A stretch of DNA of 64,000 nt from NCBI GenBank assembly GCA_050250665.1, contig JBFWOF010000007.1, forward strand, positions 32,112 to 96,111, read 5' to 3'. Positions 11,015 through 32,600 of this stretch are shown here, in pieces. Under the pieces are notes generated by a model. The model was not told the origin of the DNA, made no database searches, and was given only the letters and a program-made list of their open reading frames with translations. The stretch comes from Lysobacterales bacterium. GTDB taxonomy: Bacteria > Pseudomonadota > Gammaproteobacteria > Xanthomonadales > SZUA-5. The position numbers and the translations under genes are program-made. Each line of letters opens with the position of its first letter. The first letter of the stretch is position 1.

Positions 11015-12373
11015 GTGACAGAAGGTCGCGCCGGACCGGCCAGTACGCTAGATTCCCGCGATTGGAACTGTACGCTGGACTACGCCTTGGAACTGTTGAT
11101 TCAGGATCTCTCCCATGACGGGCGCGGCATTGCCCGTGCCGGACAGAAGGCGGTGTTCGTCTCGGGTGCTCTGCCGGGGGAGCGGGTGCTGGCGCACGTG
11201 GTCAAGCGACATCGACAATACGACGATGCGGTCGCTGACGAGATTCTGGAAGCCAGTCCCGACCGCATTCAGCCGCACTGCGCCCATGCCCAGATCTGTT
11301 CGGGCTGCAGCCTGCAGCATCTGTCGCCGCAGCAGCAGATCGAATTCAAGCAGAAACACCTGATCGACAATCTGGAACGCATCGGCAAGGTCAGCCCGCA
11401 GCGTGTGCTGGCGCCGTTGCAGCGCGATATCTGGGGCTACCGACGCAAGGCCCGGCTGTCGGTACGCCATGTCGACAAGAAAGGCAAGGCGCTGGTCGGC
11501 TTTCGCGAGGCCAACGGCCGCTATGTGGCCGAGCTGCAGAGCTGTCCGGTGCTGGATGAGCGGGTGGGCCCGCTGCTGGGGGCCTTGTCGGCGCTGGTGA
11601 CGGACATGGATGCCCGAGCCTCGATTCCGCAGATCGAGGTCGCCGCCGCCGAGCGCGCGGTGCTGGTGTTTCGCCATCTGCATCCGCTGTCGGCAAACGA
11701 CCGCGCGCGTCTGCGCCAGTTCGGGCTGGATCACGGGCTCGATATCGTGCTGCAACCTTCCGGCAATGACAGTCTGGTCGATCTGGATGGCGCCGCGCCC
11801 GCTGCACTCAGCTACGCCATCGACGACACGCTGTCGCTGCAGTATCTGCCGCTGGACTTCGTCCAGGTCAATGACAGCATCAATCGCGCCATGATCGTGC
11901 AGGCGCTGGAACTGCTGGACGTGGGTCCTGCAGATTCCGTGCTCGATCTCTACTGCGGACTTGGCAATTTCACGTTGCCGCTGGCGCGTCAGGCGGCCTC
12001 GGTTTTCGGGGTCGAGGGCGATGCCGGTCTGATCGAGCGCGCCCGTGCCAATGCCAGCTGCTGTGGCATCGCCAATGTCGACTATGCCGTCGCCGATCTC
12101 AGCCTCGATCACAGCGGTGCCGCCTGGGCGCAGGGCGATTACACCCGGATCTTGCTGGATCCGCCGCGTGCCGGTGCCGAAGCAGTGTTCGACTATCTGC
12201 CCGGGTCCGCCGTAGAACGCCTGGTGTATGTCTCCTGTCATCCCGGCACACTGGCGCGCGACACCGCCGTGCTGGTGCAGCGCAAGGGTTTCGACCTGAT
12301 CGCCGCCGGCGTCATGGACATGTTTCCGCACACCGCCCATGTCGAAAGCATGGCCTTGTTCGTGCGCCGTTGA
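11015..12373 (+). CDS. rlmD: 23S rRNA (uracil1939-C5)-methyltransferase RlmD/RumA
   Basis: TRAM-like N-terminus, Fe-S Cys cluster (CAHAQICSGCSLQH), SAM motif LDLYCGLGNF, catalytic YVSCHPGTLARD. Exact start uncertain. Confidence 0.88.
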   Translation: MTEGRAGPASTLDSRDWNCTLDYALELLIQDLSHDGRGIARAGQKAVFVSGALPGERVLAHVVKRHRQYDDAVADEILEASPDRIQPHCAHAQICSGCSLQHLSPQQQIEFKQKHLIDNLERIGKVSPQRVLAPLQRDIWGYRRKARLSVRHVDKKGKALVGFREANGRYVAELQSCPVLDERVGPLLGALSALVTDMDARASIPQIEVAAAERAVLVFRHLHPLSANDRARLRQFGLDHGLDIVLQPSGNDSLVDLDGAAPAALSYAIDDTLSLQYLPLDFVQVNDSINRAMIVQALELLDVGPADSVLDLYCGLGNFTLPLARQAASVFGVEGDAGLIERARANASCCGIANVDYAVADLSLDHSGAAWAQGDYTRILLDPPRAGAEAVFDYLPGSAVERLVYVSCHPGTLARDTAVLVQRKGFDLIAAGVMDMFPHTAHVESMALFVRR

Positions 12374-13897: not shown

Positions 13898-14433
13898 GCA
13901 AACTCGATTACCAGACGGCGCTGGAACGCGCCGATCTGTTGCACGACCGGCCCGCGCTGGAAGCGGCGCTGGACCGCATGGCGGCTGAAATCAGCGAACG
14001 CCTGAAGGGTCAGCGCCCGATCTATGTCACCGTATTGACCGGTGGGCTGATCACGGCCGGCATGTTGGCGCCGCGGGTGGATGTCGATCTGGATTTCGAC
14101 TATGTCCACGTCACCCGCTACCACGGCGAGACCAAGGGTGGTGAACTGCACTGGAAGGCACGCCCGCGCTACGATTTCGCCGGCCGTCCTGTGATTTTCG
14201 TCGACGATATCCTCGATGAAGGCCACACCCTGGATGCGCTGAAGAAGCATGCTCTCGCGGCCGGCGCGACCGCCGTCTACATCGCCGTGCTGGTCAAGAA
14301 GGAGCACGATCGCTGCGTGCCCGGCGTCGTGGCCGATTTTGTCGGCCTGACGGTGCCCGATCGCTATGTCTTCGGCTTCGGCATGGACTTCGAAGAGCAC
14401 GGACGCAGCCTGTTCGGAATCTACGCCATATGA
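13894..14433 (+). CDS. hypoxanthine/guanine-type phosphoribosyltransferase
   Basis: PRPP-binding motif VIFVDDILDEGHTL; 179 aa; ATGA-type overlap with nagZ. Confidence 0.8.
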   Translation: MSKLDYQTALERADLLHDRPALEAALDRMAAEISERLKGQRPIYVTVLTGGLITAGMLAPRVDVDLDFDYVHVTRYHGETKGGELHWKARPRYDFAGRPVIFVDDILDEGHTLDALKKHALAAGATAVYIAVLVKKEHDRCVPGVVADFVGLTVPDRYVFGFGMDFEEHGRSLFGIYAI

Positions 14434-15179
14434 GCCGAGCCGATACCGGAATCATTGGTGGCACCGGTTTCGGCCGTCTGGCCGAGTTGCAGTCGGCCCA
14501 GGCGCTGAATCTGGACACTGCCTATGGCCAGCCTTCGAGCCCGGTGCTGGTCGGTAGCATGGCCGGCGTGCCGGTGGCCTTTCTGGCGCGTCATGGCACG
14601 CCGCACCGGATTGCGCCGCATCGGGTCAACTACGCGGCCAATATTGCGGCGCTGAAGGCGGTCGGAGTCAGGCGGATCATCGCCATCAATGCGGTGGGCG
14701 GCATCGCCGAGTGGGCGGGACCTGGCGTGCTGGCGCTGCCGGACCAGCTCATCGACTACAGCCATGGTCGCATCAGCAGTTTCAGTGATGTCGAGGGGCA
14801 GGCGGTAGAGCACATCGATTTCACCGACCCCTTCAGTCAGACGCTGCGGCTGAAGTTGCTGGAAGCGGGGCGATGCGCGGCGATCGATCTGCACGATGGT
14901 GGCGTGCTGGCCGTGACCCAGGGGCCGCGCCTGGAAACCCGTGCCGAAATCGTGCGTCTGGCGCGGGATGGCTGTGATCTGGTCGGCATGACCTCGATGC
15001 CCGAGGCTGCGCTCGCCCGCGAGGCCGGCATCGACTACGCCGCCATCGCCGTGGTCGCCAATGCGGCTGCCGGCTGCGGTGGCAGCGAAGTCATCGGCAT
15101 GCACGAGATCGAGCAGACGCTGGCGGAGGCCATGCATCGGGTGTTGAGGCTGGTGAATGCGCTGTTGCCGAGCCTGTAG
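14430..15179 (+). CDS. S-methyl-5'-thioadenosine/thioinosine phosphorylase
   Basis: GIIGGTGF N-terminus, FLARHG, MTSMPEA; overlaps the upstream stop. Confidence 0.85.
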   Translation: MSRADTGIIGGTGFGRLAELQSAQALNLDTAYGQPSSPVLVGSMAGVPVAFLARHGTPHRIAPHRVNYAANIAALKAVGVRRIIAINAVGGIAEWAGPGVLALPDQLIDYSHGRISSFSDVEGQAVEHIDFTDPFSQTLRLKLLEAGRCAAIDLHDGGVLAVTQGPRLETRAEIVRLARDGCDLVGMTSMPEAALAREAGIDYAAIAVVANAAAGCGGSEVIGMHEIEQTLAEAMHRVLRLVNALLPSL

Positions 15180-15239
15180 CGCGCTTGCGCCTGTGGTATC
15201 TATGTCATCGGATTCATCCGATTTCAGGACGGTGCGCTG

Positions 15240-16952
15240 ATGACCCAGCACGAGACCATGTCCAAGGTGGACACCGCATGGCTGCGGATGGAACGTCCCA
15301 CCAATCTGATGATGATCACCGGCGTGGTCGTGCTCGACCATGCCATCGACGTGACCCAGCTCAAACGCGCGGTCGAGGCGCGCTTTCTGGCCTTCCGGCG
15401 CTTCCGCCAGCGCGCTGTCGAGCTGGCCGGGCAGTGGTTCTGGGAAACCGACGAGTCCTTCGACATCAACTGGCACGTGCGCCGCGCAGCGCTGCCACAG
15501 CCCTCCGGCAAGCCCGAACTGCAGGAATACGTCAGCAATCTGGCCAGTTCGCCGCTGGATACCAGCAAGCCGCTTTGGCAGTTCCATCTGATCGAGAACT
15601 ACGATGGCGGCGGCGCGCTGGTGATCCGCATTCATCATTGCTACGCCGACGGCATAGCCCTGGTGCAGGTGATGTTGTCGCTGATGGATACCTCGGCCGC
15701 GGGCCGCCACGACAAGCCGCATCCCAAGTCCAGGCTGAAGCAGGCTGGCGGGACCATCTTCGAGCGGTTGCTGGCGCCGGCGCGGCACAGCGTGGAGCAC
15801 GCGGCCGAATTCGTGGAATCGGCGCTGGGCATGGCTTTCGACTGGATGCGGCATCCTGCCGGGGCAGCAGAATCGCTGTTTGATACGGCACGGGCCGGTA
15901 CCCGCGAGGCTACCGAGATCGGCAAGGAACTGATCCACGCCCTGACCCTGTCGGATGATCCACCGACGCGCTTCAAGGGGCGCCTCGGCGTGTTCAAGCG
16001 CGTGGCCTGGTGTGATCCGCTGCCGCTGGCCGAGGTCAAGGCCGCCGGCAAGGCGCTCGGCGCCACCGTAAACGACGTGCTGATGGCTTGCGCCGCCGGT
16101 GCCATGCGCGCCTACATGCTCGATCGCGGCGACCAGGTCGATGGGCTGAAAATCCGCGCCACCGTGCCGGTCAATCTGCGACCGCTCGAACATGCGCGTG
16201 AGCTCGGCAACCATTTTGGACTGGTGTTCCTGGATTTGCCGATCGGCGAGCCCAATCCAGTGGCCCGTGTGCACGCGGTGCGCGCGAGCATGACCGAGCT
16301 CAAGCACTCCAAGCAGGCCCTGGTCTCCTACGGATTGTTGAGTGCGCTGGGTGTGGGCCCGGCCATGCTGCAGCGGCCGGCGCTGGAGATGCTGAGCCGC
16401 AAGGCCACCACGGTGGCCACCAATGTGCCGGGACCGTCGGCGCCGCTGTACCTGTGTGGCGGCCAGGTGCGCGAAATGATGTTCTGGGTGCCACAAACCG
16501 GCTCGATTGCGATGGGCATCAGCATCCTGAGCTATGCCGATTCGGTCTATTTCGGACTGATCTCCGACAGCAAGCTGGTGCCCGATCCCGAGCAGATCAT
16601 CCAGCGCTTCGGTGCCGAACTGGAGAAACTGCTGTTGATCGCGCTGATGCAGGAGGGTGATGAACCGATCACGGCGGAGAGCGCCGAGCACATTCTCGCC
16701 GGGATGGCTGCATCGAAGGCTGCGGCAAGGCCTAAGTCCGCTGCAAAGCCCAAAGCCGCTACAAAGCCCAAAGCCGCTACAAAGCCCAAAGCCGCTGCAA
16801 AGCCCAAAGCCGCAGCGAAGGCGAAAGCGGCTGCAAAGCCGAGAGCCAAAGTCAAAGCTGCTGCCAAGACGGGAGCTCGGGCGAAGCCTGGAGCGGCTGC
16901 AAAGGCGAAAGCTGCCGCAGGGCCGAAAGCAGTGACGAAGGCCCGCGTCTAG
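15240..16952 (+). CDS. wax ester synthase/diacylglycerol acyltransferase (WS/DGAT) with a Lys/Ala/Pro-repeat C-terminal tail
   Basis: N-terminus MSKVDTAWLRMERPTN, catalytic HHCYADG motif, NVPGP motif. The last ~85 aa are AAKPKAATKPK... repeats. Confidence 0.85.
   Translation: MTQHETMSKVDTAWLRMERPTNLMMITGVVVLDHAIDVTQLKRAVEARFLAFRRFRQRAVELAGQWFWETDESFDINWHVRRAALPQPSGKPELQEYVSNLASSPLDTSKPLWQFHLIENYDGGGALVIRIHHCYADGIALVQVMLSLMDTSAAGRHDKPHPKSRLKQAGGTIFERLLAPARHSVEHAAEFVESALGMAFDWMRHPAGAAESLFDTARAGTREATEIGKELIHALTLSDDPPTRFKGRLGVFKRVAWCDPLPLAEVKAAGKALGATVNDVLMACAAGAMRAYMLDRGDQVDGLKIRATVPVNLRPLEHARELGNHFGLVFLDLPIGEPNPVARVHAVRASMTELKHSKQALVSYGLLSALGVGPAMLQRPALEMLSRKATTVATNVPGPSAPLYLCGGQVREMMFWVPQTGSIAMGISILSYADSVYFGLISDSKLVPDPEQIIQRFGAELEKLLLIALMQEGDEPITAESAEHILAGMAASKAAARPKSAAKPKAATKPKAATKPKAAAKPKAAAKAKAAAKPRAKVKAAAKTGARAKPGAAAKAKAAAGPKAVTKARV
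16740..16847 (+). repeat. six tandem 18-bp units (GCTRCAAAGCCCAAAGCC) encoding A-[A/T]-K-P-K-A
   Basis: Direct reading of 16740-16847; units 2 and 3 are identical and later units diverge. Confidence 0.9.
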
Positions 16953-17175
16953 CCCGTCGGTCTCGGCGCTCGGTTCCAGCGGGGCCGCAAGCCGTGGCAA
17001 GGCGCTTTGCAGGCTTCGTGAGTGAGCGCACAGACACCACTTCGGGCTTACACTAAGCTGAAAGATGGCAGATGCGGTCCAAACCTGCCAAACCACCTGA
17101 GCAGTTGATGCTTTGTGCTTGATTCTAAATGCCCTATCCTATGGTGATCTGACCCAGAAGGGCGGGAGGGCCAAA

Positions 17176-18558
17176 ATGGCCGAGAAGATCTTGAATCGAT
17201 TGAGCCTGTCGGCAGTCACTCTGGCAGTGGCAGTGGCACTGGCGTGCGTGCCGGAGCCAGGGCATGCCCAGGCACAGAATTTCCAGATGCGCCTGGACCG
17301 GGCGATCGTGTACACGCCACTCTATCCCGGCGGATTTGCCGACACGGTGCCGCCGTACAGCATGTGTCGCTACAACGGCGATGGTAACAGTGGCATGGCG
17401 TTGCGCTTCCGCTACACCTGGAACAACACCTTTCAGGAGTACATCTACACCGAACCCGGTTCTACTTTCTATCCCTATTACTACATGCAGGGCGTCAACC
17501 CGAACCCGGCCTTGGTACCTGCAACGTCCGGCACCGGGCCGGTCTACAAGAATGTCGATGTCGGCTTGCTGACCGGTCCAGTCAACACCCTCGGCGTGCA
17601 AACGCTCACTTTCCGTGGACGCACTTCGGGATTCTTCGGTCAGCCCGTCATGACGGCTTCGCTGCCAGTGCAGATCGAGACGTTGTTCGAGCCCTATCCC
17701 ACGGTCTACCGTGAAGTGCCGGATGGCGCGCTGGATATGCCCACCCAACCTTGGTTTGCCTGGAGTCAGTCCGGAACGCCCGAGAGCGTGCGCTTTGACG
17801 TTGCCCCTTGCAGCAATGCGGCGGCGACGAACAACTCCGAGTGCACTTCGGCGATGCCGTTCGCACCCACGACCACCGCCTGTGGCAGCAGCCTCTACTG
17901 CTCCTCAGGTACGGCGAATACCTTGCAACTGCCGATCACGCTGGTGCGCAACACGGCCTATGAATATCGAGTGATCGGTAGAAACATCTGCGGTCTCAGC
18001 GATGAGCTGGCATCGACGCCATCGCGGCCCTTCTTCCGCACCGCGCAGGCCTGCTTCACCAGCGGTGGCAGCATTCCGGACGGTGGCACGGCCAACTTCG
18101 ACGTCTCGACTCTGGGCATCAATCCAGGTTCTCTGGCGCCCAATTTGCGGGTCACAGTGCATGTGGATCATGCCCAGGTCAGCGATCTGCGGATTTCCCT
18201 GACGAAGACCTCACCGGATAGCGCCGGTCCCTTGTTGCTGATGGATCGTCCTTCCGGGCCGAACTGCTCCGGTCGCCGCATCCAGGCGGTGTTCCGCGAT
18301 GGTGCGATTTCCGCGGTGGCGGCGTGCAAGAGCCAGGAGCCCGCCATCAGCGGCGCCATTTCCCCGGTTCAGGCTTTGTCCTCCTTTGCCAGCACCCAGG
18401 GCGGCGGAAACTGGAGACTGACGGTCGAGGACACCAGTGCCAACGGCAAGGCCGGCTATCTGCGGGAGTGGTGTCTGTCGGCGGATGTGCCGATCTCGCC
18501 GACGGCTTTCGTCGATCCGATCATCTGGGGCAGCGGCTTCGAGACGGTCAGCCCCTGA
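17176..18558 (+). CDS. secreted protein with C-terminal proprotein-convertase P-domain-like module
   Basis: ATG 17176 preceded by GGGAGGG. Signal peptide (AVAVALACVPEPGHAQA). C-terminal segment has VSDLRISLTKTSPDSAG ... GGGNWRLTVEDTSANGKAGYLREWCL. No protease domain recognised. Confidence 0.6.
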   Translation: MAEKILNRLSLSAVTLAVAVALACVPEPGHAQAQNFQMRLDRAIVYTPLYPGGFADTVPPYSMCRYNGDGNSGMALRFRYTWNNTFQEYIYTEPGSTFYPYYYMQGVNPNPALVPATSGTGPVYKNVDVGLLTGPVNTLGVQTLTFRGRTSGFFGQPVMTASLPVQIETLFEPYPTVYREVPDGALDMPTQPWFAWSQSGTPESVRFDVAPCSNAAATNNSECTSAMPFAPTTTACGSSLYCSSGTANTLQLPITLVRNTAYEYRVIGRNICGLSDELASTPSRPFFRTAQACFTSGGSIPDGGTANFDVSTLGINPGSLAPNLRVTVHVDHAQVSDLRISLTKTSPDSAGPLLLMDRPSGPNCSGRRIQAVFRDGAISAVAACKSQEPAISGAISPVQALSSFASTQGGGNWRLTVEDTSANGKAGYLREWCLSADVPISPTAFVDPIIWGSGFETVSP

Positions 18559-20450: not shown

Positions 20451-20578
20451 TCGGAAATAGCTGAACAGTCCACCTAAAGCCGGCGCTGCTTAGTGTGATT
20501 GTTCTATGGGCAGCGCTTACTTTGACTGTCAAGCGCGAGTGTTGTGGCGCTCAGTTTCCATCAATGAGGAGTTTAACC

Positions 20579-21022
20579 ATGGCTACGAAAAAGCTCGCCG
20601 GCAAGAAAGTGGTGCGCAATGCCAAGCGCGAAGTCAGCGAAGTGCGTGACAACGCCCGTGACCTGCTGCTGGCTTCGATCGGCGCAGTGTCGATCACCCG
20701 CAAGCAGGGTGCCAGCTTCGTCGGCAATCTGCTGGAGCAGGGTCAGGAACTGCGCGGTCGTGCGCTGAAGCTGGCCGAAGGCAAGGTCGCCGATGTCCGC
20801 CAGCAGGTGGAAGGCGTGATTGGCAAGGTGCAGCAGCGCGCTGCCGCCAATCTGAGCCAGGTCGAGACCGTTGTCGGCGGTCAGGTGACCCGCGTGCTCG
20901 GTCGTCTGGGCGTGCCGTCCAAGGCGGACGTCAAGGAGCTGTCGCGCCGTGTGGCCGAGCTCAACAAGCAGGTCAAGGCGCTGCAGGCCGCGCGCAAGAC
21001 TGGCGAAGCCAAGGCTGCCTGA
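20579..21022 (+). CDS. phasin-family granule-associated protein (PhaI-like)
   Basis: ATG 20579 preceded by GAGGA. Motif LGRLGVPSKADVKELSRRVAELNKQV is typical of PhaF/PhaI-type phasins. 147 aa, no AKP tail. Confidence 0.75.
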   Translation: MATKKLAGKKVVRNAKREVSEVRDNARDLLLASIGAVSITRKQGASFVGNLLEQGQELRGRALKLAEGKVADVRQQVEGVIGKVQQRAAANLSQVETVVGGQVTRVLGRLGVPSKADVKELSRRVAELNKQVKALQAARKTGEAKAA

Positions 21023-21046
21023 TCAAGGCAGTGTCTGAGTTATGCC

Positions 21047-21078
21047 GAAGGGCCGGAGCAATCCGGCCCTTCTTGTTT
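21047..21078. terminator. bidirectional rho-independent terminator
   Basis: GAAGGGCCGG-agcaat-CCGGCCCTTC followed by TTGTTT. Lies between the convergent phasin and TetR genes. Confidence 0.65.
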
Positions 21079-21731
21079 CAGCTGTTGCCGAGATACTGAT
21101 CGGCCAGCCGCGTCAGATGGGCCCGCTCTGCCGATTTCAGATAGGGCGCAATCAACACCATCACCTGATAGATGCCACGGCCGAGATCGACGTCCGATTT
21201 TGCACTGGTCGCCGGCTTGATCTGCTGGAAATTGAGCCAGAAGGTGGTCAATACCACCGTGTTCTGCGAGATCGCCTCGATTTCGCGTTGACTGGCGAGC
21301 ATCGTTCCGGCCTTGACCATTTCCGTGCAGACCGTGGAAATGCTCTCGTGCGCGCGTTTGAGGATGCGCGAAAAATGCATCTTCAGTTTGCGGCTGCGCG
21401 TGAGCAGATCGACCAGATCACGGTAGACGAAGCGATAGTCCCAGATGCACTCGAACACCAGGTGCATCTGCAACCACATGTCTTCGAGATTGGGCGTGCG
21501 CCCCTCCGGAACCAGCAAGGCATCACCGATACGCTCCTCGAAGCGCGCGAACAGCTGCTCGATGATGTCGTCCTTGTTGCGGAAGTGGTAGTACAGGTTT
21601 CCCGGGCTGATCTCGAGTTCGTCGGCGATGTGATTGGTGGTGACGTTGGGCTCACCCTGCACGTTGAACATTTCCAGGCTCTTCGCCAGGATCCGATCAC
21701 GCGTCTTGACTGGCACCGGTTCGGGGCTCAC
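21078..21731 (-). CDS. TetR-family regulator, PhaD-like
   Basis: KTRDRILAKSLEMFNVQGEPNVTTNHIADELEISPGNLYYHF HTH and C-terminal YQVMVLIAPYL resemble Pseudomonas PhaD (from memory). Start placed at GTG 21731 with GAGG upstream, 7 nt after the ACBP stop. Confidence 0.8.
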   Translation of the reverse strand: MSPEPVPVKTRDRILAKSLEMFNVQGEPNVTTNHIADELEISPGNLYYHFRNKDDIIEQLFARFEERIGDALLVPEGRTPNLEDMWLQMHLVFECIWDYRFVYRDLVDLLTRSRKLKMHFSRILKRAHESISTVCTEMVKAGTMLASQREIEAISQNTVVLTTFWLNFQQIKPATSAKSDVDLGRGIYQVMVLIAPYLKSAERAHLTRLADQYLGNS

Positions 21732-21738
21732 ATCGACC

Positions 21739-22002
21739 TCAGAAGTTTCCGCCGAGGCGCTTGACCAGGTCGATGTACTTCTGCTTTGCCTCGTCATGGG
21801 TGAGGCCCTTGAGCTTCTCCCAGGCTTCGTACTTGGCGGTGCCAACGAAGTCGAAGAAGCCGGGCTTCGGACCCGATACATCACCTTCGGTCGCCTGCTT
21901 GAAGTGGCTGTACAGCTTCAGCATGGTGTCGTTGTCGGGACGTTCCGGCAACTGCTTGGCGGCTTCGGTGGCGGCTTGAAACTGGCTTTCGATGTCTGAC
22001 AT
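21739..22002 (-). CDS. acyl-CoA-binding protein (ACBP)
   Basis: 87 aa with LKLYSHFKQATEGD and KYEAWEKLKG motifs. ATG 22002 preceded by GGGGGAAA. Confidence 0.9.
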   Translation of the reverse strand: MSDIESQFQAATEAAKQLPERPDNDTMLKLYSHFKQATEGDVSGPKPGFFDFVGTAKYEAWEKLKGLTHDEAKQKYIDLVKRLGGNF

Positions 22003-22205: not shown

Positions 22206-24197
22206 ATGACTTACTTCGTTACGGGCGCCACCGGCTTTCTGGGTCGATTCCTGATCGGGAATCTGCTCAAGCGCAAGGGCACGATTCATGTGCTGGTCCG
22301 GCGTGGCTCCAAGGAGAAGTTCGAGGCCTTGCAGGCCAGATACCCGGAAGCCGGGGATCGTCTGGTGGCCGTCACTGGCGATCTGACCAAGGCCAAACTC
22401 GGTCTGAGTGCCCAGGCGCAGTCGCAGCTGAAGGGCAAGATCAAGCACTTCTTCCATCTCGCAGCCATCTATGACCTGTCGGCCAGTGCCGAATCGCAGC
22501 AGGCGGCAAACATCGACGGTACCCGCAATGCGGTGCAGCTGGCCGAGGCAGTAGGAGCAGGTTGCTTCCATCACGTCAGTTCGATTGCGGCCGCGGGCCT
22601 GTATTCGGGTGTGTTCCGCGAAGACATGTTCGACGAAGCAGAGAACCTGGATCACCCCTATTTCCGCACCAAGCATGATTCCGAAGGCATCGTCCGCAAG
22701 GAATGCAAGCGTCCCTTCCGCATCTACCGGCCGGGCATGGTCGTTGGTCATTCCCAGACTGGTGAGATCGACAAGATCGACGGCCCCTACTACTTCTTCA
22801 CCCTGCTCAAGCGCATGCGTGAGCTGTTGCCGCCGTGGATGCCCTTGCTGGGCATGGAAGGCGGACGCATCAACCTGGTGCCGGTGGATTTCGTGGTCAA
22901 CGCCATGGACCACATCGCCCATGAGAAAGGCTACGACGGCGGCTGCTTTCACCTCACTGATCCGGCGCCGCGCCGGGTCGGCGAGGTGCTGAACAGCTTC
23001 GCCTATGCCGGACATGCGCCGGAAATGACCATGCGCATCGACGCCCGCATCTTCCAGATCATCCCGGCCTCCATCCGCGGGGCGATCGGCATGCTGCCGC
23101 CGGTGCGACGGATCATGGGGCACGTGCTCAAGAGCCTGAACATTCCGGCCGATGTCCTGAAGTTCTTCAATTATCCGACCCGTTTCGACAGTCGCGAAAC
23201 CGAGCGCGCGCTCAAGGGCTCCGGCATCAAGGTGCCCGATCTCGACACCTACGCCTGGCGCCTCTGGGATTATTGGGAGCGCCACCTCGACCCCGATCTG
23301 TTCGTCGATCGCTCGCTGTCCAGCCGGGTCAAGGACAAGGTGGTCCTGATCACCGGTGGCTCCTCGGGCATCGGCCTGGCGACCGCCAGGAAGGTGGCTG
23401 CCGCCGGCGCACGCACGCTGATCTGTGCGCGCGGACTGGAAGATCTGGAAAAGGCCAAGGCCGAGATCGAGGCCGAGACCAAGAACGCCAAGGTGTTCAT
23501 CTATCAGGTGGATCTGGCGGAGTTGTCGTCAGCGGACGATCTGGTCAAGAAGGTCACTGCCGAGCATGGCGCGGTTGACGTGCTGATCAACAACGCCGGT
23601 CGTTCGATCCGGCGATCGATCGAACTGTCCTACGACCGCTTCCACGACTTCGAGCGCACCATGCAGCTGAACTATTTCGGTTCACTGCGGCTGGTCATGG
23701 GCTTTCTGCCGGGCATGACCGAGCGCCGCAAGGGCCATGTGATCAACATCAGCTCGATTGGCGTGCTCACCAACGCGCCGCGCTTCTCGGCCTACGTGGC
23801 CAGCAAGGCCGCGCTGGATGCCTTCTCGCGCTGCGCCGCCAGCGAGTTCTCCGACAAGAACATCCACTTCACGATCATCAACATGCCCTTGGTGAAGACG
23901 CCGATGATTGGCCCCACCAAGATCTACGACAACGTGCCTACGTTGACCCCTGACGAGGCTGCTGACATGGTCGTGCGCGGCATCATCGAGCGGCCGCATC
24001 GATTGGCGACACGGATGGGCATCTTCGCGGAAATGCTGCATCTGATGGCGCCCAAGGTCTATCAGGTGGTGCTCAACACCGCTTTCCAGCTGTTCCCGGA
24101 TTCCGCCGCTGCCAAGGGCGTGAAGGGCGGCCAGGAAGCACCGCCGTCGAGCGAGCAGGTGGCTTTCGCATCGCTGATGCGGGGCGTGCACTGGTAG
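22206..24197 (+). CDS. two-domain fatty acyl-CoA/aldehyde reductase (NAD(P)-binding reductase domain + SDR domain)
   Basis: N-terminal VTGATGFLG Rossmann. Second domain ITGGSSGIG with YVASK (YxxxK). At 663 aa the architecture matches the ~661-aa Marinobacter fatty alcohol-forming reductase (from memory). Confidence 0.8.
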   Translation: MTYFVTGATGFLGRFLIGNLLKRKGTIHVLVRRGSKEKFEALQARYPEAGDRLVAVTGDLTKAKLGLSAQAQSQLKGKIKHFFHLAAIYDLSASAESQQAANIDGTRNAVQLAEAVGAGCFHHVSSIAAAGLYSGVFREDMFDEAENLDHPYFRTKHDSEGIVRKECKRPFRIYRPGMVVGHSQTGEIDKIDGPYYFFTLLKRMRELLPPWMPLLGMEGGRINLVPVDFVVNAMDHIAHEKGYDGGCFHLTDPAPRRVGEVLNSFAYAGHAPEMTMRIDARIFQIIPASIRGAIGMLPPVRRIMGHVLKSLNIPADVLKFFNYPTRFDSRETERALKGSGIKVPDLDTYAWRLWDYWERHLDPDLFVDRSLSSRVKDKVVLITGGSSGIGLATARKVAAAGARTLICARGLEDLEKAKAEIEAETKNAKVFIYQVDLAELSSADDLVKKVTAEHGAVDVLINNAGRSIRRSIELSYDRFHDFERTMQLNYFGSLRLVMGFLPGMTERRKGHVINISSIGVLTNAPRFSAYVASKAALDAFSRCAASEFSDKNIHFTIINMPLVKTPMIGPTKIYDNVPTLTPDEAADMVVRGIIERPHRLATRMGIFAEMLHLMAPKVYQVVLNTAFQLFPDSAAAKGVKGGQEAPPSSEQVAFASLMRGVHW

Positions 24198-24708: not shown

Positions 24709-25404
24709 TCAGGCCGCCGGCTTGGTTTCCGCAGCCGCGACCACGGCTTCGGTGGTCTTCGGCGCAGCAGCCTTCTTCGGCGCCGCAGCCTTCGGCGCAG
24801 CAGCCTTCTTCGGCGCAGCAGCCTTCGGAGCAGCGGCCTTCTTCGGGGCAGCAGCCTTCGGAGCGGCGGCCTTCGGAGCAGCCTTCTTCGGCGCTGCAGC
24901 CTTCGGAGCAGCAGCCTTCGGAGCAGCAGCCTTCGGAGCAGCAGCCTTCTTCGGCGTTGCGGCGCGGTTGCCCGCATCCAGCGAACGCACGGCCTTGCTC
25001 AGCTCGTCAACGCGCTTGGCCAGCTCTTCCAGCTCTTCGCGACCCGGAATGCCGAGAGTGCCCAGAGCCTTGGAGACGCGATTCTCGAACACCTGTTCGA
25101 GGCGGTCCCAAGTGTCAGAGGCTCGTTCCTTGACCTGTGTAACGGTGGTTTCGACCATGCCGCGCACTTCCTCAACTTTGTTGCCGGTCAGCTTGCGCGT
25201 CGCTTTCTCAAGCACTGCGCCTTCCTTGACCAGCGTCTCGTAGAACTTGCCGCTCTGCTCCTGTGCCTTGGAGAAAGCACCCAAGCCTGCCAGCCAGATC
25301 TGCTCGGCCTGTTCCATGACGGCCTTGGCGGTGTTCTTCAGCGTGTTCTCGCTGGCGGAATCCTTGGCCTTGGCCTTGAATTTGGTACCTTTGGAAGTTT
25401 TCAT
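24709..25404 (-). CDS. PhaF-like granule-associated protein (phasin domain + AAPK histone-H1-like tail)
   Basis: N-terminal IWLAGLGAFSKAQE, mid LGIPGREELEELAKRVDELSKAV, then ~69 aa of AAAPK/AAAPKK repeats. Confidence 0.8.
   Translation of the reverse strand: MKTSKGTKFKAKAKDSASENTLKNTAKAVMEQAEQIWLAGLGAFSKAQEQSGKFYETLVKEGAVLEKATRKLTGNKVEEVRGMVETTVTQVKERASDTWDRLEQVFENRVSKALGTLGIPGREELEELAKRVDELSKAVRSLDAGNRAATPKKAAAPKAAAPKAAAPKAAAPKKAAPKAAAPKAAAPKKAAAPKAAAPKKAAAPKAAAPKKAAAPKTTEAVVAAAETKPAA
24757..24963 (-). repeat. tandem 15/18-bp coding repeats (AAAPK / AAAPKK)
   Basis: Direct reading: GCAGCCTTCGG / GCAGCCTTCTTCGG periodicity on the + strand. Confidence 0.85.
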
Positions 25405-25532: not shown

Positions 25533-26855
25533 TCAATATGGGCTTGCATTCTCAGGGAATTGTTCGATAGGGGCCGATTTGCGACGTGAGTTGGAAGGGC
25601 GCTTGCGGCCTTCCTGCAGACGCCGGGTTCGCTGCAGTGCTCGATCAAGTTCATTCAGCGATCGGTCCAGCCGTGACAGCAAGGTCGAGTTCGGCGGCCT
25701 GGTGCCTTCCAGACCATCCCAAACCGTGCGCTCGGTATCTTCGAGTATGTCGTCGCGCAGACTCAACCCATGCCGTTCCAGCACCGGCTGCAGCTGCTCG
25801 CGGCGCAGCCGCAGATCGGCCAGCGTGGTGGCATAGGCGTGTTCGCACAGTCGGCGGCGACTGCTGAAACTGAAGACGTTGGTGAAGAACATCTCGGCGT
25901 CGTCCAGATCCGGCTGGAACAGCACCAGATCGGAATGATCGTAAGCCTTGTCATATTTGCCGAAGCCGACCCGCATGCGTGAATAGAGCATGGCCCGGAT
26001 GGTTTGCGAGATGACCCTGGGAAAACCGCCATCCACGAGGCTGGCCGGAGGTTCATCGCCACGGTCGCGCATGCGCGAGGCATCAAAGGGTACCAACGGA
26101 TTCAATGCCAGCAGCAGGTCGATATCCTCATCCAGCGCGATCGAGGCGTGCAGCGTGCGTTGCAGGGCGCCGTCGACGTAGTAGCGGCCATTGATTTCCA
26201 CTGGCGGATAGAAGCCCGGCAGTGCCGAACTGGCCTGGACGGCCTTGGATATCGGCACGGTGTTGTCGGTGCCTGTGCCAAAGCGCACGGCGTGGCCGGT
26301 GTCGATGTCCACGGCCACCACATACAGCGGCCGATCCAGCTTGCGGAAATCGTTGCTGCGGCCGGGCGCATTGAAGATGCCGCTGAGGTAGCGCTCGATG
26401 CCCTCATTGTCGAACAGACCGGTGGGAATCGCCGCGCCTAGCCGGCCCAATGACTCACTCCACCGAACCGAACGTGGATGCAGGGCCAGATCGACCAGCC
26501 AGTCGGCCAGGATTCCCGGCACGGCGCTCAGGCGCTTGATGTATTCGTAGAAAGCCGGCTTCAGGAAGTGTTCCGGACGGAACTGATGCTCGGGCGATTC
26601 CTCGGTGATGAACATGCGGCACATTTCCGCCGAATCGACCCGGTTGGCGAGGCCAGCCGCCAGAAACGCGCCCGAGCTCACGCCCACGTAAACGTCCAGC
26701 CGGGTCAGGTCCAGCCCGTCTATGGCCTCGTCCAGCGCCCGCAGGGCGCCCATTTCGTAGATGCCACCGATCGGGCCGCCGCCGGCAACCGCCAGTCCGA
26801 TCCGGTGCGGGGTGTTCAGTGAACGGGTTCGACGAGCTTCCTGCAAATGCAGCAT
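25533..26855 (-). CDS. patatin-like phospholipase/lipase
   Basis: Oxyanion AGGGPIGG, nucleophile elbow GVSSGA, catalytic DGAL; 440 aa. Confidence 0.85.
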   Translation of the reverse strand: MLHLQEARRTRSLNTPHRIGLAVAGGGPIGGIYEMGALRALDEAIDGLDLTRLDVYVGVSSGAFLAAGLANRVDSAEMCRMFITEESPEHQFRPEHFLKPAFYEYIKRLSAVPGILADWLVDLALHPRSVRWSESLGRLGAAIPTGLFDNEGIERYLSGIFNAPGRSNDFRKLDRPLYVVAVDIDTGHAVRFGTGTDNTVPISKAVQASSALPGFYPPVEINGRYYVDGALQRTLHASIALDEDIDLLLALNPLVPFDASRMRDRGDEPPASLVDGGFPRVISQTIRAMLYSRMRVGFGKYDKAYDHSDLVLFQPDLDDAEMFFTNVFSFSSRRRLCEHAYATTLADLRLRREQLQPVLERHGLSLRDDILEDTERTVWDGLEGTRPPNSTLLSRLDRSLNELDRALQRTRRLQEGRKRPSNSRRKSAPIEQFPENASPY

Positions 26856-29029: not shown

Positions 29030-29821
29030 ATGATGAAAGCCAAGTCCCGTGGGGAGCATTCTGTGCGCATCTGTCTCGCCGTGTGGTTGCTGGGAGTCTC
29101 ATTGCCGCTTCTGGCACAGGAACAGCCGCGTTCGCAGCCCGCTGCGGCGGCCCCCAGAGTCCAATCTGAGCCCGCGGCTCCTGCCGCTGCAAGGCCGGCG
29201 GAAGCTGCAACGATGAAGCTGCACGGCCAGCTGCTCCTGAGCAGTGGCGGGCGACCGCTGCGCAGCGAAGAAGCCCAGGATGCGGTTGTCTACTTTCGAC
29301 CGGATTCGCCGGTAGCGCCGGTGGTGCCGACAACACCTTTCGTCATTGCCACCGAGCGCAAGACCTTCGTGCCCAGAGTCTTGCCGATACCGGTCGGTGC
29401 CAGCGTGCGTTTTCCGAACAACGATCCAATTCTGCACAACGTCTTTTCCAGCACCCGCGAGGCCGCCTTCGACCTCGGCCTGTACGGGCGCAGCGAGGGC
29501 GAGAGCTATCACTTCACCCAGCCGGGGGTGATTCGGGTGTTCTGCAATGTGCATCACGCCATGGTGGCCCATGTGCTGGTGCTCGATACGCCATTCTTCA
29601 CCAAGCCCGACGCCCAGGGCAGATTCAATCTGAAAGGAATTCCTCCCGGCCCCGGTGAACTGTTCGTGTGGCATGAACGGGCCCAGCTCTGGCGGAGTAA
29701 GATCAGTGCTGGCACAGATGACGAGGTCAAGGTGCAGCTGGAGCTGAGCAAGCGGCGGGTGCCGCCGCATCTCAACAAGACCGGCCAGCCCTACCGGAGG
29801 ACAAGGCCTGATGAGTACTGA
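29030..29821 (+). CDS. periplasmic cupredoxin-fold-like protein
   Basis: Signal peptide (LAVWLLGVSLPLLAQE). VRFPNNDPILHNVFS ... VFCNVHHAMVAHVLV resembles plastocyanin-like / methylamine-utilisation-annotated proteins. 11-nt overlap with the next gene. Confidence 0.55.
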   Translation: MMKAKSRGEHSVRICLAVWLLGVSLPLLAQEQPRSQPAAAAPRVQSEPAAPAAARPAEAATMKLHGQLLLSSGGRPLRSEEAQDAVVYFRPDSPVAPVVPTTPFVIATERKTFVPRVLPIPVGASVRFPNNDPILHNVFSSTREAAFDLGLYGRSEGESYHFTQPGVIRVFCNVHHAMVAHVLVLDTPFFTKPDAQGRFNLKGIPPGPGELFVWHERAQLWRSKISAGTDDEVKVQLELSKRRVPPHLNKTGQPYRRTRPDEY

Positions 29822-32600
29822 ACGCGGATTCAGGCTGCCCCTGGCTGCTCGTATCTTCTTTGCGAGCGGCTTCATGGTGGCTCTTGCCGTGGCGCTGGCG
29901 GCGCTGGTGACGCTGCAGTATGGCCGTCGCGCGGGAGAGGACGCGGTTGACCACAGTCTGGAAGCGGCCAACAACGCCCAGGAACGGTTCGAGGCGCTGT
30001 CCTTCCAGAAGCTCGACATCGTGGCCAAGACGATCATCAACGATGCCAGCTTCGTGCGCTATGTGGCGACCGCCACGGTGGGCAGCAGCGGCCTGAACGA
30101 GCTCGGCATCGCCTCACCGCCGGACGTGCCAGTGGCGGCGGCGACCGAGCCCGATGAATCAGGGAGTTCCGAGCAATCCGCCAGTCTGCCAGCCCCGGAG
30201 CCGGATGCCGACAGCGCTTCGGTCAAGGATCTGCTGACTCAGTTTGGCGAAAGTTACGACTTCAGCTTCGGGATGGTGCTGGATGCTGACGGTCGGGTGG
30301 TCGCCCGCACGGACGAACGCGAGGCCTTCGCCGATGATCTTTCCGACGATCCCATGTTCGGCAACATGATCAAGGACATCGTCGGAGTGACCGGATACTG
30401 GCGCAATGGCCTGGCTTTGCTGCAGGTGTCGGCGCAGCCAATGGTGATGCAGGATGAACTGGTCGGATTTCTGGTCATCGGCGTGCCGGTGGATGCCGGC
30501 GTGGTCAAGCAGGTGCGCGAAGTCAGCGGTGGCGAAGTCGCCTTCTGGGTCATGGATCAGGACAAGCTGCGCCTGATAGCCACGTCGGTGGATGAATCTG
30601 CTGCGGCTCTGCTGAAGGAATCGATCTCCAGGATCGAACCCAATCTGCTCGAAAGTCTGCAGGCCGGCCGCTCGCTGGCGCGGGTGCGTGATCTCTCTCT
30701 GGGGAGCACCACCCTGGCAGCCAGTCTGGCGCCGCTGTTCGGTCAGCCTGGGGACGCCGTGGGTGGCGTGATCACCATGACCTCCATCGACACGGCCATG
30801 GCGCCTTTCCAGTCCATCCGCAACGCCGTGCTGCTGGGTGGACTGATCGCGCTGCTGTTGTCGCTGGCGGTGTCCTGGTGGCTGGCTCGCAGGGTGTTGC
30901 GGCCGGTCTCCGAATTGATTGAGGCCGCTGAACAGGCGGCTGGCGGCAACTATCACCAGCAGTTGACCATCGAAGGCAATGACGAAGTGGCCAGACTCGG
31001 ACGGGCCTTCGACTCGCTGCTCAGCGATCTGCGTGAGAAGAAGGACATCGAAGGATACGTCGGCCATCTGTCGCGTTTCCTGCCCGATCCAGGTTCCGAG
31101 GCGCAGCTTTTGCCGGCGGCGCCGGCGCCCAAACCAGTCACCAGACGCGAATGCGCACTGGTGGGTCTGGAGCTTCGACGTTTCCTGCGCGCGCCACCCA
31201 AGGGTGAGGAAGCGATCACCTTGACCGCGCTCGGTCAGTTGATCGAAGAAGCGGTTGCCCGTGCCCAGGCCGCTGGTGGCGAGCTGCTGGAGCAGGAAGG
31301 TCCCAGACTGCTGTTCGGATTCGGTGGTGAGTCGTCCGAACTGCGGGCGCTGGCGGCGGTCAGCGCCTGGTGGGAAGGACGCATCGGTACCAGCGACAAT
31401 GGCGCGGCGGTGGCGCTGGCACTGGGCGAGATCGTGCACGGATCGTTGCCGGCTCGGCCGGAATCAAGCGCCACCATCGGCTTGCCGGTGCTGCAGGTCG
31501 AGCGTCTGCTGGCGGAGACGCCGGTGGGTCAGATGCTGCTGTCGCCGGCCTTCGGCGAGCGCATCAAGAGCATCGGTCAGACCGGCGTGTTGCGCGCCGC
31601 GCAGGGGCAGAGCAGCGGCAAGCGCTTCCTGTCGATCGATCGTCCCAGTCTGAGCGCAGTGGCGCGGCTGGCTCCTGGCCTGTCCCAGGCCACGGTGATG
31701 ATGGGGGCAGAGGGTGCCGCTACCCAGGTCGCCGGTGCTGCTGCTCCGGCAGCATCCGACCAGGCTTCGACCCGGCTGGCGCTGGGGATGCGCTTCGCCG
31801 GTCGTTACGAGATTCTGGCGATACTCGGCGCCGGTGGCATGGGCATGGTCTACAAGGCGCGCGACACCGACCTGTCCGATGTGGTGGCGCTGAAGATGCT
31901 GCGCCCGGGGATGGTCATCGATGCCGAGCAACTGGAGGGACTCAAGGTCGAGCTCAAGCTGGCGCGCAAGATCACCCACCCCAATGTGCTGCGCACCTAC
32001 GATTTCGGCGAATTCCAGGGCGTACCCTACATTTCGATGGAATATGTGCGCGGCCTGACCCTGCGTTACCTGCTGCAGCAGGCCGGCAGATTGCCGTTCT
32101 CGGCAGCCTTGCGGATCGCCCGGCAGCTGTGCATGGGCCTGGATGCCGCGCATCAGATGGGCGTGATCCATCGCGACATCAAGCCGGAGAACATCATCAT
32201 CGAGCAGAGCGGCAACGCCAAGCTGATGGACTTCGGCATCGCCCGCTCTGCCGGACGCTCGGATTCCAGGCATACCCAGCCGGGTACCTTCCTGGGTACG
32301 CCCAACTATGCCTCGCCCGAACAGCTCTCGGGTTCGGATCTGGATCAACGTACCGACATCTATTCCACCGGCGTCATGTTGTGCGAAATGTTCTGCGGCA
32401 AGTTGCCCTTCACCGGTAGCAATACCATGGAACTCTATGTAGCCCATCTGCAACAGGCACCGATCAAGCCCTCCGAGTTGTGGCCCGATATTCCGCGGGC
32501 TCTGGAAGAGGTCATTCTCAAATGCCTGGAGAAAAAGCCCGATGATCGATACGCTTCGTCGGCGGATCTGCTGGTGGCGTTGTCCGGACTGCGGGCCTGA
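29811..32600 (+). CDS. transmembrane sensor Ser/Thr protein kinase (periplasmic sensor, HAMP, degenerate cyclase-homology-like domain, STK)
   Basis: TM helix, ~300-aa periplasmic region, second TM, HAMP (LRPVSELIEAAEQAAGGNYHQQL...DEVARLGRAFDSL). A CHD-like stretch lacks the metal Asp (ALVGLELRRF). Kinase motifs GAGGMGMVYKA, VALK, HRDIKPEN, DFGIAR are present. Confidence 0.85.
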   Translation: MSTERGFRLPLAARIFFASGFMVALAVALAALVTLQYGRRAGEDAVDHSLEAANNAQERFEALSFQKLDIVAKTIINDASFVRYVATATVGSSGLNELGIASPPDVPVAAATEPDESGSSEQSASLPAPEPDADSASVKDLLTQFGESYDFSFGMVLDADGRVVARTDEREAFADDLSDDPMFGNMIKDIVGVTGYWRNGLALLQVSAQPMVMQDELVGFLVIGVPVDAGVVKQVREVSGGEVAFWVMDQDKLRLIATSVDESAAALLKESISRIEPNLLESLQAGRSLARVRDLSLGSTTLAASLAPLFGQPGDAVGGVITMTSIDTAMAPFQSIRNAVLLGGLIALLLSLAVSWWLARRVLRPVSELIEAAEQAAGGNYHQQLTIEGNDEVARLGRAFDSLLSDLREKKDIEGYVGHLSRFLPDPGSEAQLLPAAPAPKPVTRRECALVGLELRRFLRAPPKGEEAITLTALGQLIEEAVARAQAAGGELLEQEGPRLLFGFGGESSELRALAAVSAWWEGRIGTSDNGAAVALALGEIVHGSLPARPESSATIGLPVLQVERLLAETPVGQMLLSPAFGERIKSIGQTGVLRAAQGQSSGKRFLSIDRPSLSAVARLAPGLSQATVMMGAEGAATQVAGAAAPAASDQASTRLALGMRFAGRYEILAILGAGGMGMVYKARDTDLSDVVALKMLRPGMVIDAEQLEGLKVELKLARKITHPNVLRTYDFGEFQGVPYISMEYVRGLTLRYLLQQAGRLPFSAALRIARQLCMGLDAAHQMGVIHRDIKPENIIIEQSGNAKLMDFGIARSAGRSDSRHTQPGTFLGTPNYASPEQLSGSDLDQRTDIYSTGVMLCEMFCGKLPFTGSNTMELYVAHLQQAPIKPSELWPDIPRALEEVILKCLEKKPDDRYASSADLLVALSGLRA

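Follow-up and report, generated by a model that had tools for sequence, protein, structure and literature searches.

What is a histone-like tail doing at the end of a lipid-synthesizing enzyme? The question is raised by a gene at 15240..16952 in a 64 kb stretch of Lysobacterales DNA (contig JBFWOF010000007.1, positions 32,112 to 96,111; hereafter the window). Its product is a clear member, by sequence, of the wax ester synthase/diacylglycerol acyltransferase (WS/DGAT) family, and would consist of a folded catalytic core followed by a disordered and strongly cationic C-terminal tail rich in alanine, lysine and proline (AKP). Comparison with relatives indicates that this tail is real and translated, and suggests that it grew, by local expansion of a repeat, from a polybasic extension that was already present in the ancestors of the subfamily. 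We propose, with about even confidence, that the tail anchors the enzyme to the nucleoid. The gene and the parts of its product are as follows.

15240..16952, + strand: WS/DGAT gene, ATG start, 570 amino acids (aa), recognized by Pfam and TIGR02946
15258..16634, + strand: catalytic core, aa 7-465, delimited by Pfam, TIGR02946 and an AlphaFold2 model whose predicted local distance difference test score (pLDDT) is mostly >90
nt 15633-15653, + strand: HHCYADG active-site motif, aa 132-138, from an alignment of 66 sequences
16635..16703, + strand: acidic linker LIALMQEGDEPITAESAEHILAG, aa 466-488, net charge -5, conserved across the subfamily
16704..16949, + strand: cationic Ala/Lys/Pro tail, aa 489-570, defined by composition, pLDDT and conserved frame and stop
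16738..16840, + strand: tandem array of 5.7 copies of the 18-bp unit CCGCTGCAAAGCCCAAAG, encoding A-A/T-K-P-K-A, from Tandem Repeats Finder

The core is covered by two Pfam domains, WS_DGAT_cat (PF03007; aa 7-280, 140 bits, cut-off 23.6) and WS_DGAT_C (PF06974; aa 323-464, 137.7 bits, cut-off 20.7), and by the NCBIfam model TIGR02946 (aa 7-465, 425.6 bits compared with a cut-off of 309.95), so that the profiles draw its end near aa 465. H132, H133, D137 and G138 of the active-site motif are invariant in the 66-sequence alignment. The core has a net charge of 0 and no transmembrane segment. It is followed by the 23 aa acidic linker, just past which the tail-less homologues stop; the AlphaFold2 model, calculated with the same alignment, places helices at aa 451-470 and 479-496. 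An earlier note on this DNA, made from the letters alone, had assigned the 570 aa open reading frame (ORF) to this family by its HHCYADG motif, as the profile matches now bear out, and had described characterized WS/DGATs as proteins of about 460 aa with no tail. The solved structures agree: 7NXG (463 aa) and 6CHJ (455 aa) both terminate where the core of the window protein terminates. The linked fatty acyl-CoA reductase-type gene described below suggests that the enzyme synthesizes wax esters. A scan for promoters and terminators over 15000-17300 gave zero matches, and operon boundaries are therefore not inferable. On the opposite strand, an 891 aa ORF (14421..17096, -) is a high-GC shadow spanning the PNP and WS/DGAT genes.

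The tail measures 82 aa, close to the approximately 85 aa first estimated, and consists of 44% Ala, 26% Lys and 10% Pro (80% together), with no Asp or Glu; its net charge is +25 and its isoelectric point is 12. The 18-bp array shows 88% matches between copies (Tandem Repeats Finder) and is essentially the set of six units that the earlier note had located at 16740-16847. Clean A(A/T)KPKA units nevertheless cover just ~34 aa of the tail, the remainder being degenerate; the hexapeptide is found four times and the KP dipeptide six times. Model confidence is high through the core and the terminal helix to about aa 496 and falls to a pLDDT of 34-49 over approximately aa 505-570, and the tail is predicted to be intrinsically disordered from about aa 505. 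Searched alone against Pfam, it gave zero family matches. Repeats of the KPAA or AAKP type were also looked for, and the KPAA count in the tail is 0. Because this literal motif is lacking, we call the tail PhaF/AlgP-like in its way of working and not a member of their family: it resembles histone H1 in composition and predicted disorder, and would act as the PhaF and AlgP tails do. A six-frame scan of the whole window yielded just two AKP-rich segments, this tail and that of a PhaF-like phasin encoded about 8 kb away, and they are not a product of chance.

The codons of both tails deserve a separate remark. The GC content at third codon positions (GC3) is 0.55 in the WS/DGAT tail versus 0.83 in its core, and 0.66 in the phasin tail versus 0.75 in the phasin core. 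GCT is the top alanine codon in both tails (12/36 in the WS/DGAT tail and 25/43 in the phasin tail, with 5/55 in the WS/DGAT core). Such codons are atypical of this GC-rich genome, and may reflect the history of the repeats, the supply of tRNAs or the structure of the mRNA.

Assemblies often contain errors at repeats, and an exact look-up gave no record of the 570 aa protein in the public collection; the tail could thus be an assembly or frameshift artefact that is never translated, and a frameshift placing a stop near 16700 had been named in the earlier note as one way in which its reading would fail. We hold this to be extremely improbable. The Lysobacterales metagenome-assembled contig JALHRS010000030.1 (L001) encodes a WS/DGAT core that is 98% identical, in the same gene order as in the window. 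Its tail-coding DNA shares the frame and the TAG stop codon with the window, and the sole length difference is an in-frame 30-bp indel. Substitutions between the two cores fall at codon positions 1, 2 and 3 in the numbers 12, 2 and 67 (amino-acid divergence 2%), and those between the two tails in the numbers 11, 8 and 31 (amino-acid divergence 19%). The tail thus evolves faster than the core at the protein level, yet it retains the third-position excess of a coding sequence. Because an independent assembly keeps the frame and the TAG stop, and because of this third-position bias, we take the tail to be translated. A second independent assembly, that of a 93% relative (locus L081, protein P0001), likewise encodes a basic tail in the same frame; the indels are multiples of 3, and such tails are present in nearly all members of the subfamily. 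The 18-bp unit is present in 5.7 copies in the window, in 10.0 in L001 and in ~3 in L081/P0001, where the stop codon comes earlier than in the window. In-frame copy-number variation among close relatives, which the earlier note had anticipated, is thereby demonstrated.

Where does such a tail come from? Among the 120 best database matches (55-93% identity, from Xanthomonadales/Lysobacterales where named, 487-660 aa long), 108 extend at least 10 aa past the acidic segment, and the net charge of the extension is at least +3 in 108/108. Their median length is 43.5 aa and their median charge +9, or about +0.24 per residue. These 108 tails are not alignable to each other. Since all of them keep the charge while failing to align, it is positive charge that is conserved, and apparently selected, and not the sequence. 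The tails of the closest relatives (72-85% identity) are short (16-22 aa), Arg-rich and carry a net charge of +6 to +8, such as PAAVKPRRRRKSRSSAS or PRRRRKARSSAS. Within the subclade of the window the length then rises stepwise, from these 16-22 aa to 35 aa in P0001, 72 aa in L001 and 82 aa in the window. Elsewhere the basic units are different: (KKSVA)n in L076, whose WS/DGAT tail, around 11400-12100 of that locus, runs ~210 aa past the linker with a net charge of +44, (ASKQA)n in P0032 and SKTRSxSIGK repeats in P0064. Different lineages expanded different basic units independently. In a rough neighbour-joining tree of 203 WS/DGAT cores, 122 of the sequences are tailed and the trait changes state about seven times, with a tail reconstructed at the root; the tail is lacking in a large Lysobacter-type clade, and several lineages have lost it. 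All of this points away from a one-off fusion and towards an old polybasic extension, ancestral to this Lysobacterales/gammaproteobacterial WS/DGAT subfamily, that was lengthened locally by repeat expansion. The view of the earlier note, that of an enzyme fused to a histone-like module, has to be replaced by that of a recent repeat expansion of a short ancestral extension. The window tail itself would have arisen by lineage-specific slippage or duplication of the 18-bp AAKPKA-encoding unit.

Many of the longer tails of Tahibacter-type relatives show a further feature, a conserved short terminal motif, F(A/G)xE(I/L)xRFRxRR or (V/L)F(E/D)LA (for example P0051, P0063, P0081, P0091, L010, L011, L065; P0075, P0083, P0084, P0087), which might form an amphipathic helix or serve as a docking peptide. 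The clade of the window has neither motif.

One may object that a tail evolving in this way could be low-complexity sequence that expanded more or less neutrally and has no specific ligand. Its short basic end might then help with solubility or charge balance, while replication slippage makes the AKP repeat drift in length. The contrast in amino-acid divergence with the 98% relative (19% for the tail, 2% for the core), the spread of tail length from ~16 to >200 aa across relatives, the tail-less lineages produced by loss and the atypical codons (GC3 of 0.55 compared with 0.83) are all compatible with drift. We nevertheless judge it unlikely: the net charge is positive in 108/108 tails and acidic residues are excluded from the tail, distinct basic units, those of L076 and P0032 among them, were expanded independently, the third-position substitution bias persists in the tail, and the tail is tightly linked to a storage gene cluster (see below).

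C-terminal extensions of WS/DGATs are also found outside this subfamily. A search with the core only against 1.84 billion cluster representatives was made, and the 150 best matches were sorted by C-terminal extension: 96 have none or <30 aa, 15 carry a motif of three cysteines and a histidine (C3H), 14 a basic low-complexity segment, eight an acidic segment, one a helix-hairpin-helix (HhH)-like segment recognized by regular expression and 15 some other extension, and in one the match is C-terminus-incomplete. Among these 150, HHH_5 domains score above the Pfam cut-off in P0129 (30.1 bits) and P0199 (49.9 bits). When P0199 was used as the seed of a search, HhH Pfam domains were found on 25 of the 120 WS/DGATs listed (for example P0272, P0274, P0327 and P0383), the named sources being Chloroflexota; these C-terminal domains belong to PF14520, PF12836 or PF00633 and often lie past an acidic spacer. 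The C3H motif, C-x9-C-x10-C-x2-H with the consensus C.A.T.AG.PCKN.ALPG...CRVH, is found in 15/150 distant representatives (carriers include P0134, P0139, P0144, P0148, P0149, P0188, P0190, P0196, P0204, P0210, P0212, P0267 and P0268). Its Pfam likenesses (DUF5763, zf-TRM13_CCCH, zf-C3Hc3H, WRC and zf-primase) are all below their cut-offs, and a profile search with the motif against the PDB gave nothing significant, the best E-value being 0.1. The weak resemblance to zinc fingers that are thought to bind nucleic acids (WRC, zf-C3Hc3H, zf-TRM13 and zf-primase) is suggestive only. Finally, an acyl-CoA-binding protein (ACBP) domain (PF00887, 66.7 bits) or an SRPBCC/Polyketide_cyc2 domain (59 bits) is fused in P0147 and P0191, and the protein with the SRPBCC/Polyketide_cyc2 domain also closes in a short basic stretch. 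Judged by these sequences, accessory domains are generally attached to WS/DGATs at the C-terminus. We advance more tentatively, as something that could be but probably is not the case, the idea that WS/DGATs have repeatedly and independently gained nucleic-acid-binding C-terminal modules, with basic tails in Lysobacterales, HhH domains in Chloroflexota and the C3H motif elsewhere.

The surroundings of the tailed gene are also informative. Reading away from the WS/DGAT gene, the following genes are found in this order.

17113-18558, + strand: secreted protein with a proprotein-convertase P-domain, 481 aa
18824-19330, + strand: small ORF with no family match, 168 aa
19497..20450, - strand: TPR-repeat protein, 317 aa (TPR_11 match)
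20495..21022, + strand: short PF05597 phasin, PhaI-like; the likely start Met at 20579 gives 147 aa
21078..21884, - strand: TetR-family regulator, 268 aa (PF13972 138 bits, TetR_N 42 bits)
22206..24197, + strand: two-domain fatty acyl-CoA reductase-type protein, 663 aa (Pfam and NF005539)
24709..25404, - strand: PhaF-like phasin, 231 aa, with a PF05597/TIGR01837 domain and an AAAPK(K) tail
25533..26855, - strand: patatin-like lipase, 440 aa (PF01734, 104.5 bits)

The reductase matches PF07993 (Male-sterility/NAD_binding_4) in its N-terminal part with 167 bits and PF00106 (SDR) in its C-terminal part with 183 bits, and NF005539 covers its full length with 987 bits. By this architecture and the NCBIfam equivalog, it appears to be a two-domain fatty acyl-CoA reductase of the Maqu_2507 type. 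The short phasin scores 82.1 bits with PF05597 and 76.9 bits with TIGR01837, the latter below the cut-off of 94.7. The patatin-like lipase is a candidate for mobilizing stored lipid. We counted the association between tail and cluster over 50 genome loci in which the sequence continues for 9.5 kb or more downstream, a reductase being accepted at 60% identity or more. It lies within 10 kb of the WS/DGAT gene in 7/7 basic-tailed loci and in 0/43 tail-less loci (Fisher p = 1e-8, a value that overstates independence as the seven tailed loci represent about three clades). Tailed WS/DGATs thus seem to belong to a conserved wax-ester storage cluster comprising the reductase, the TetR regulator, the PhaI-like and PhaF-like phasins and the patatin lipase.

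The PhaF-like phasin scores 140 bits with PF05597 and 118.6 bits with TIGR01837, above the cut-off of 94.7. Its tail (aa 146-231, 86 aa, nt 24712-24969) is 50% Ala, 22% Lys and 16% Pro in AAAPK(K) repeats, with an array of 15/33-bp units at 24757-24949, in agreement with the earlier note, which had seen an equivalent AAAPK(K) tail close this gene at 24757-24963. The repeat number differs between the window and L001, and the phasin tail stays long in L005 and L006, whose WS/DGAT tails are short. We considered a common origin of the two AKP tails of the window and ruled it out: the longest DNA match between them is 13 nt, and both the units and the codons differ. Because they share no DNA homology, the two tails are convergent. 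Among the window ORFs scanned, which are a part of the total, the phasin has as neighbours the genes for the WS/DGAT, the reductase, the TetR regulator and the patatin lipase, and they remain linked in related loci. Since its gene sits in the same conserved wax-ester cluster, the phasin probably coats the lipid body formed by the WS/DGAT product. The gene that the earlier note had called PhaF-like, with reference to the part played by the PhaF tail in segregating polyhydroxyalkanoate (PHA) granules, is to be seen as a member of this wax-ester cluster.

We may now return to the role of the tail, and it is by analogy that we infer both its ligand and the cellular consequence. The WS/DGAT would be the synthase of wax esters or triacylglycerols, and its tail a sequence-independent anchor onto polyanions, most likely the DNA of the nucleoid. 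Wax-ester and triacylglycerol bodies would then start on the chromosome, stay attached to it and be divided among the daughter cells. The mature lipid body would be tethered by the PhaF-like phasin, whose AKP tail evolved independently. We favour the nucleoid because WS/DGATs bear the types of module that serve phasins as DNA tethers (a basic tail or an HhH domain) and because a phasin of the PhaF type is co-encoded. Nucleoid tethering is plausible, and the HhH fusions of other WS/DGATs lend it indirect support. That the tail is a nucleoid anchor that sets the start of lipid bodies on the chromosome is, in our estimation, an evenly balanced proposition.

Several observations weigh against it. 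AKP composition alone does not identify a ligand, since the Lys/Ala/Pro tail of HBHA binds anionic phosphoinositides and is needed for the formation of lipid inclusions (PMC6176652), and the KPAA repeats of PhaF also bind RNA (PMC12818456). The window tail lacks the KPAA motif, the association with the storage cluster comes from few clades, and the lipid-binding ACBP and SRPBCC domains at the same position indicate that the extensions are not all related to nucleic acids. The 16-22 aa Arg-rich tails of the nearest relatives look equally like polybasic membrane-targeting motifs. In addition, AtfA-type enzymes are described as active at the cytoplasmic membrane.

These last points lead to the main rival explanation, in which electrostatic attraction between the polybasic tail and anionic phospholipids would hold the enzyme in place, either at the cytoplasmic membrane, through phosphatidylglycerol or cardiolipin in its inner leaflet, or at the phospholipid monolayer around the lipid body. 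A soluble acyltransferase would thereby be kept close to its hydrophobic substrates and products, which partition to that surface, and a core with a net charge of 0 and no transmembrane segment would suit such an arrangement. The Arg/Lys clusters of the nearest relatives, +6 to +8 in 16-22 aa, are typical of membrane targeting and fit this explanation at least as well. Many distant tails close with an FAxEIxRFRxRR-like motif that may form an amphipathic helix, and the Lys-rich Ala/Pro tail of HBHA, on which lipid-inclusion formation depends, binds phosphatidylinositol and its bisphosphate PIP2 (PMC6176652). Yet HhH domains, which are DNA-binding modules, occupy the same position in other WS/DGAT lineages, an H1-like repeat of 82 aa and +25 exceeds what membrane targeting needs, and the tail of the co-encoded phasin is of the PhaF type, a type shown to bind DNA and RNA. 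We regard phospholipid anchoring as a serious possibility that falls short of being probable.

The tail might instead have another polyanion as its ligand: either RNA, in which case it would activate translation in the manner of PhaF, or polyphosphate granules, in the manner of AlgP. Lipid storage would then be coupled to translation or to polyphosphate bodies instead of DNA. The disordered KPAA region of PhaF binds specific mRNAs and activates their translation (PMC12818456), and the H1-like AlgP is reported to associate with polyphosphate granules and to space them (PMC9239181). However, a biosynthetic enzyme would have no reason to be an activator of translation, the tail varies too much among close relatives for RNA to be recognized specifically, and no polyphosphate genes were noted in the cluster in a general family scan of part of the window ORFs. 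We consider this explanation very unlikely.

Some other features of the cluster should be mentioned. The TPR protein is conserved in ten clustered loci with 42-97% identity (52-97% in all but L076). Wherever the wax-ester cluster is found, its gene lies between the WS/DGAT gene and those of the phasins, next to the latter, and it may be an uncharacterized component of the lipid-body system. The P-domain gene is found in close relatives only, and together with the 168 aa ORF is probably an insertion unrelated to lipid storage; the N-termini of both products look hydrophobic by eye. A + strand ORF at 21042-21764 (240 aa, no Pfam match) was rejected as a gene of the cluster: it is the antisense shadow of the TetR regulator gene, which is why it is conserved in relatives. 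A 929 aa protein with a HAMP domain and a eukaryotic-type Ser/Thr kinase domain is encoded at 29811-32600 (+), ~3 kb past the patatin lipase gene.

If the tail does anchor the enzyme to DNA, the starting site of lipid bodies in Gram-negative bacteria would be located, the role of PF05597 phasins would extend past PHA, and tail length would be a simple means of setting how many wax-ester bodies production strains form and how large these become. If, moreover, such modules have been acquired repeatedly, many bacteria would start and inherit their wax-ester or triacylglycerol bodies with the nucleoid and not only at the cytoplasmic membrane, and the PF05597 'PHA' phasins would be both coat and tether of wax-ester bodies in Gram-negative bacteria. 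Because basic, HhH and C3H extensions recur across the WS/DGAT family, the question can be tested in several phyla.

How does this arrangement compare with known systems? To our knowledge, the nucleoid tethers of storage granules that have been described, for polyhydroxybutyrate (PHB), for polyphosphate (AlgP) and for actinobacterial triacylglycerol (MLDS), are all non-enzymatic adaptors. Full-text literature searches, with most subscription journals outside their coverage, returned no report of cationic, lysine-rich or HhH C-terminal extensions of WS/DGATs and none of PF05597 phasins on wax-ester bodies. A metagenomic survey contains Burkholderiales scaffolds on which WS/DGAT, Maqu_2507-like reductase and PHA-granule-protein genes stand together, a co-occurrence left uninterpreted there (PMC10351704). 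The tethering principle is thus known, and what appears to be new is a tail borne by the synthase itself within a wax-ester cluster, together with the recurrence of such modules across the family.

With the AtfA-type enzyme of Acinetobacter (7NXG) and the Marinobacter enzyme (6CHJ), the window protein shares the two-domain fold and the HHxxxDG motif; unlike it, these proteins of 455-463 aa end at the core, with neither the acidic linker helix nor the basic tail. The resemblance to Pseudomonas PhaF concerns first the phasin: the 231 aa window protein combines a PF05597 domain with an AAAPK tail, a shorter PhaI-like phasin and a TetR regulator accompany it in the manner of PhaF/PhaI/PhaD, and its repeat number differs between relatives, as reported for PhaF (PMC12818456). 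The layout of synthase, lipase, TetR and PhaF/PhaI genes mirrors the pseudomonad pha locus, as known generally and from PMC13052382. However, a WS/DGAT, a reductase and a patatin lipase stand where that locus has PhaC and PhaZ (phaC itself not having been searched for), and the WS/DGAT tail is built on A(A/T)KPKA units instead of KPAA, in a protein that has no phasin domain.

Lipid-droplet proteins with C-terminal Lys/Ala/Pro tails of the PAKKA type are also found in Rhodococcus and Mycobacterium (MLDS, TadA and HBHA), and in Rhodococcus the PAKKA tail of MLDS brings DNA, which it binds without sequence specificity, to triacylglycerol droplets (PMC5504291). For the HBHA tail, by contrast, the ligands shown are phosphoinositides and not DNA (PMC6176652). 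These are structural, non-enzymatic proteins of Actinobacteria, whereas the tail described here is carried by a Gram-negative neutral-lipid synthase. PHB granules are tethered to the nucleoid by the histone-like tails of PhaM and PhaF or by the HhH domain of PhaH (PMC13052382). In PhaH of Caulobacter crescentus the HhH domain is an alternative to the histone-like tail, and WS/DGATs too bear one or the other; PhaH is nevertheless a phasin and not an enzyme, and the window protein has no HhH domain.

A close parallel is PhaM-PhaC1 of Cupriavidus necator (Ralstonia eutropha). PhaM forms a complex with PHB synthase and activates it, and the synthase is held at the nucleoid through the Lys/Ala/Pro histone-like tail, on which granule number and inheritance depend (PMC13052382). 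In C. necator the tail is on the separate activator PhaM and the polymer is PHB, whereas in the window the tail lies within the synthase polypeptide and the product would be a wax ester or triacylglycerol; there is no sequence homology between the two systems. The proposed arrangement would be a one-protein version of PhaM-PhaC1, parallel to PhaF and MLDS.

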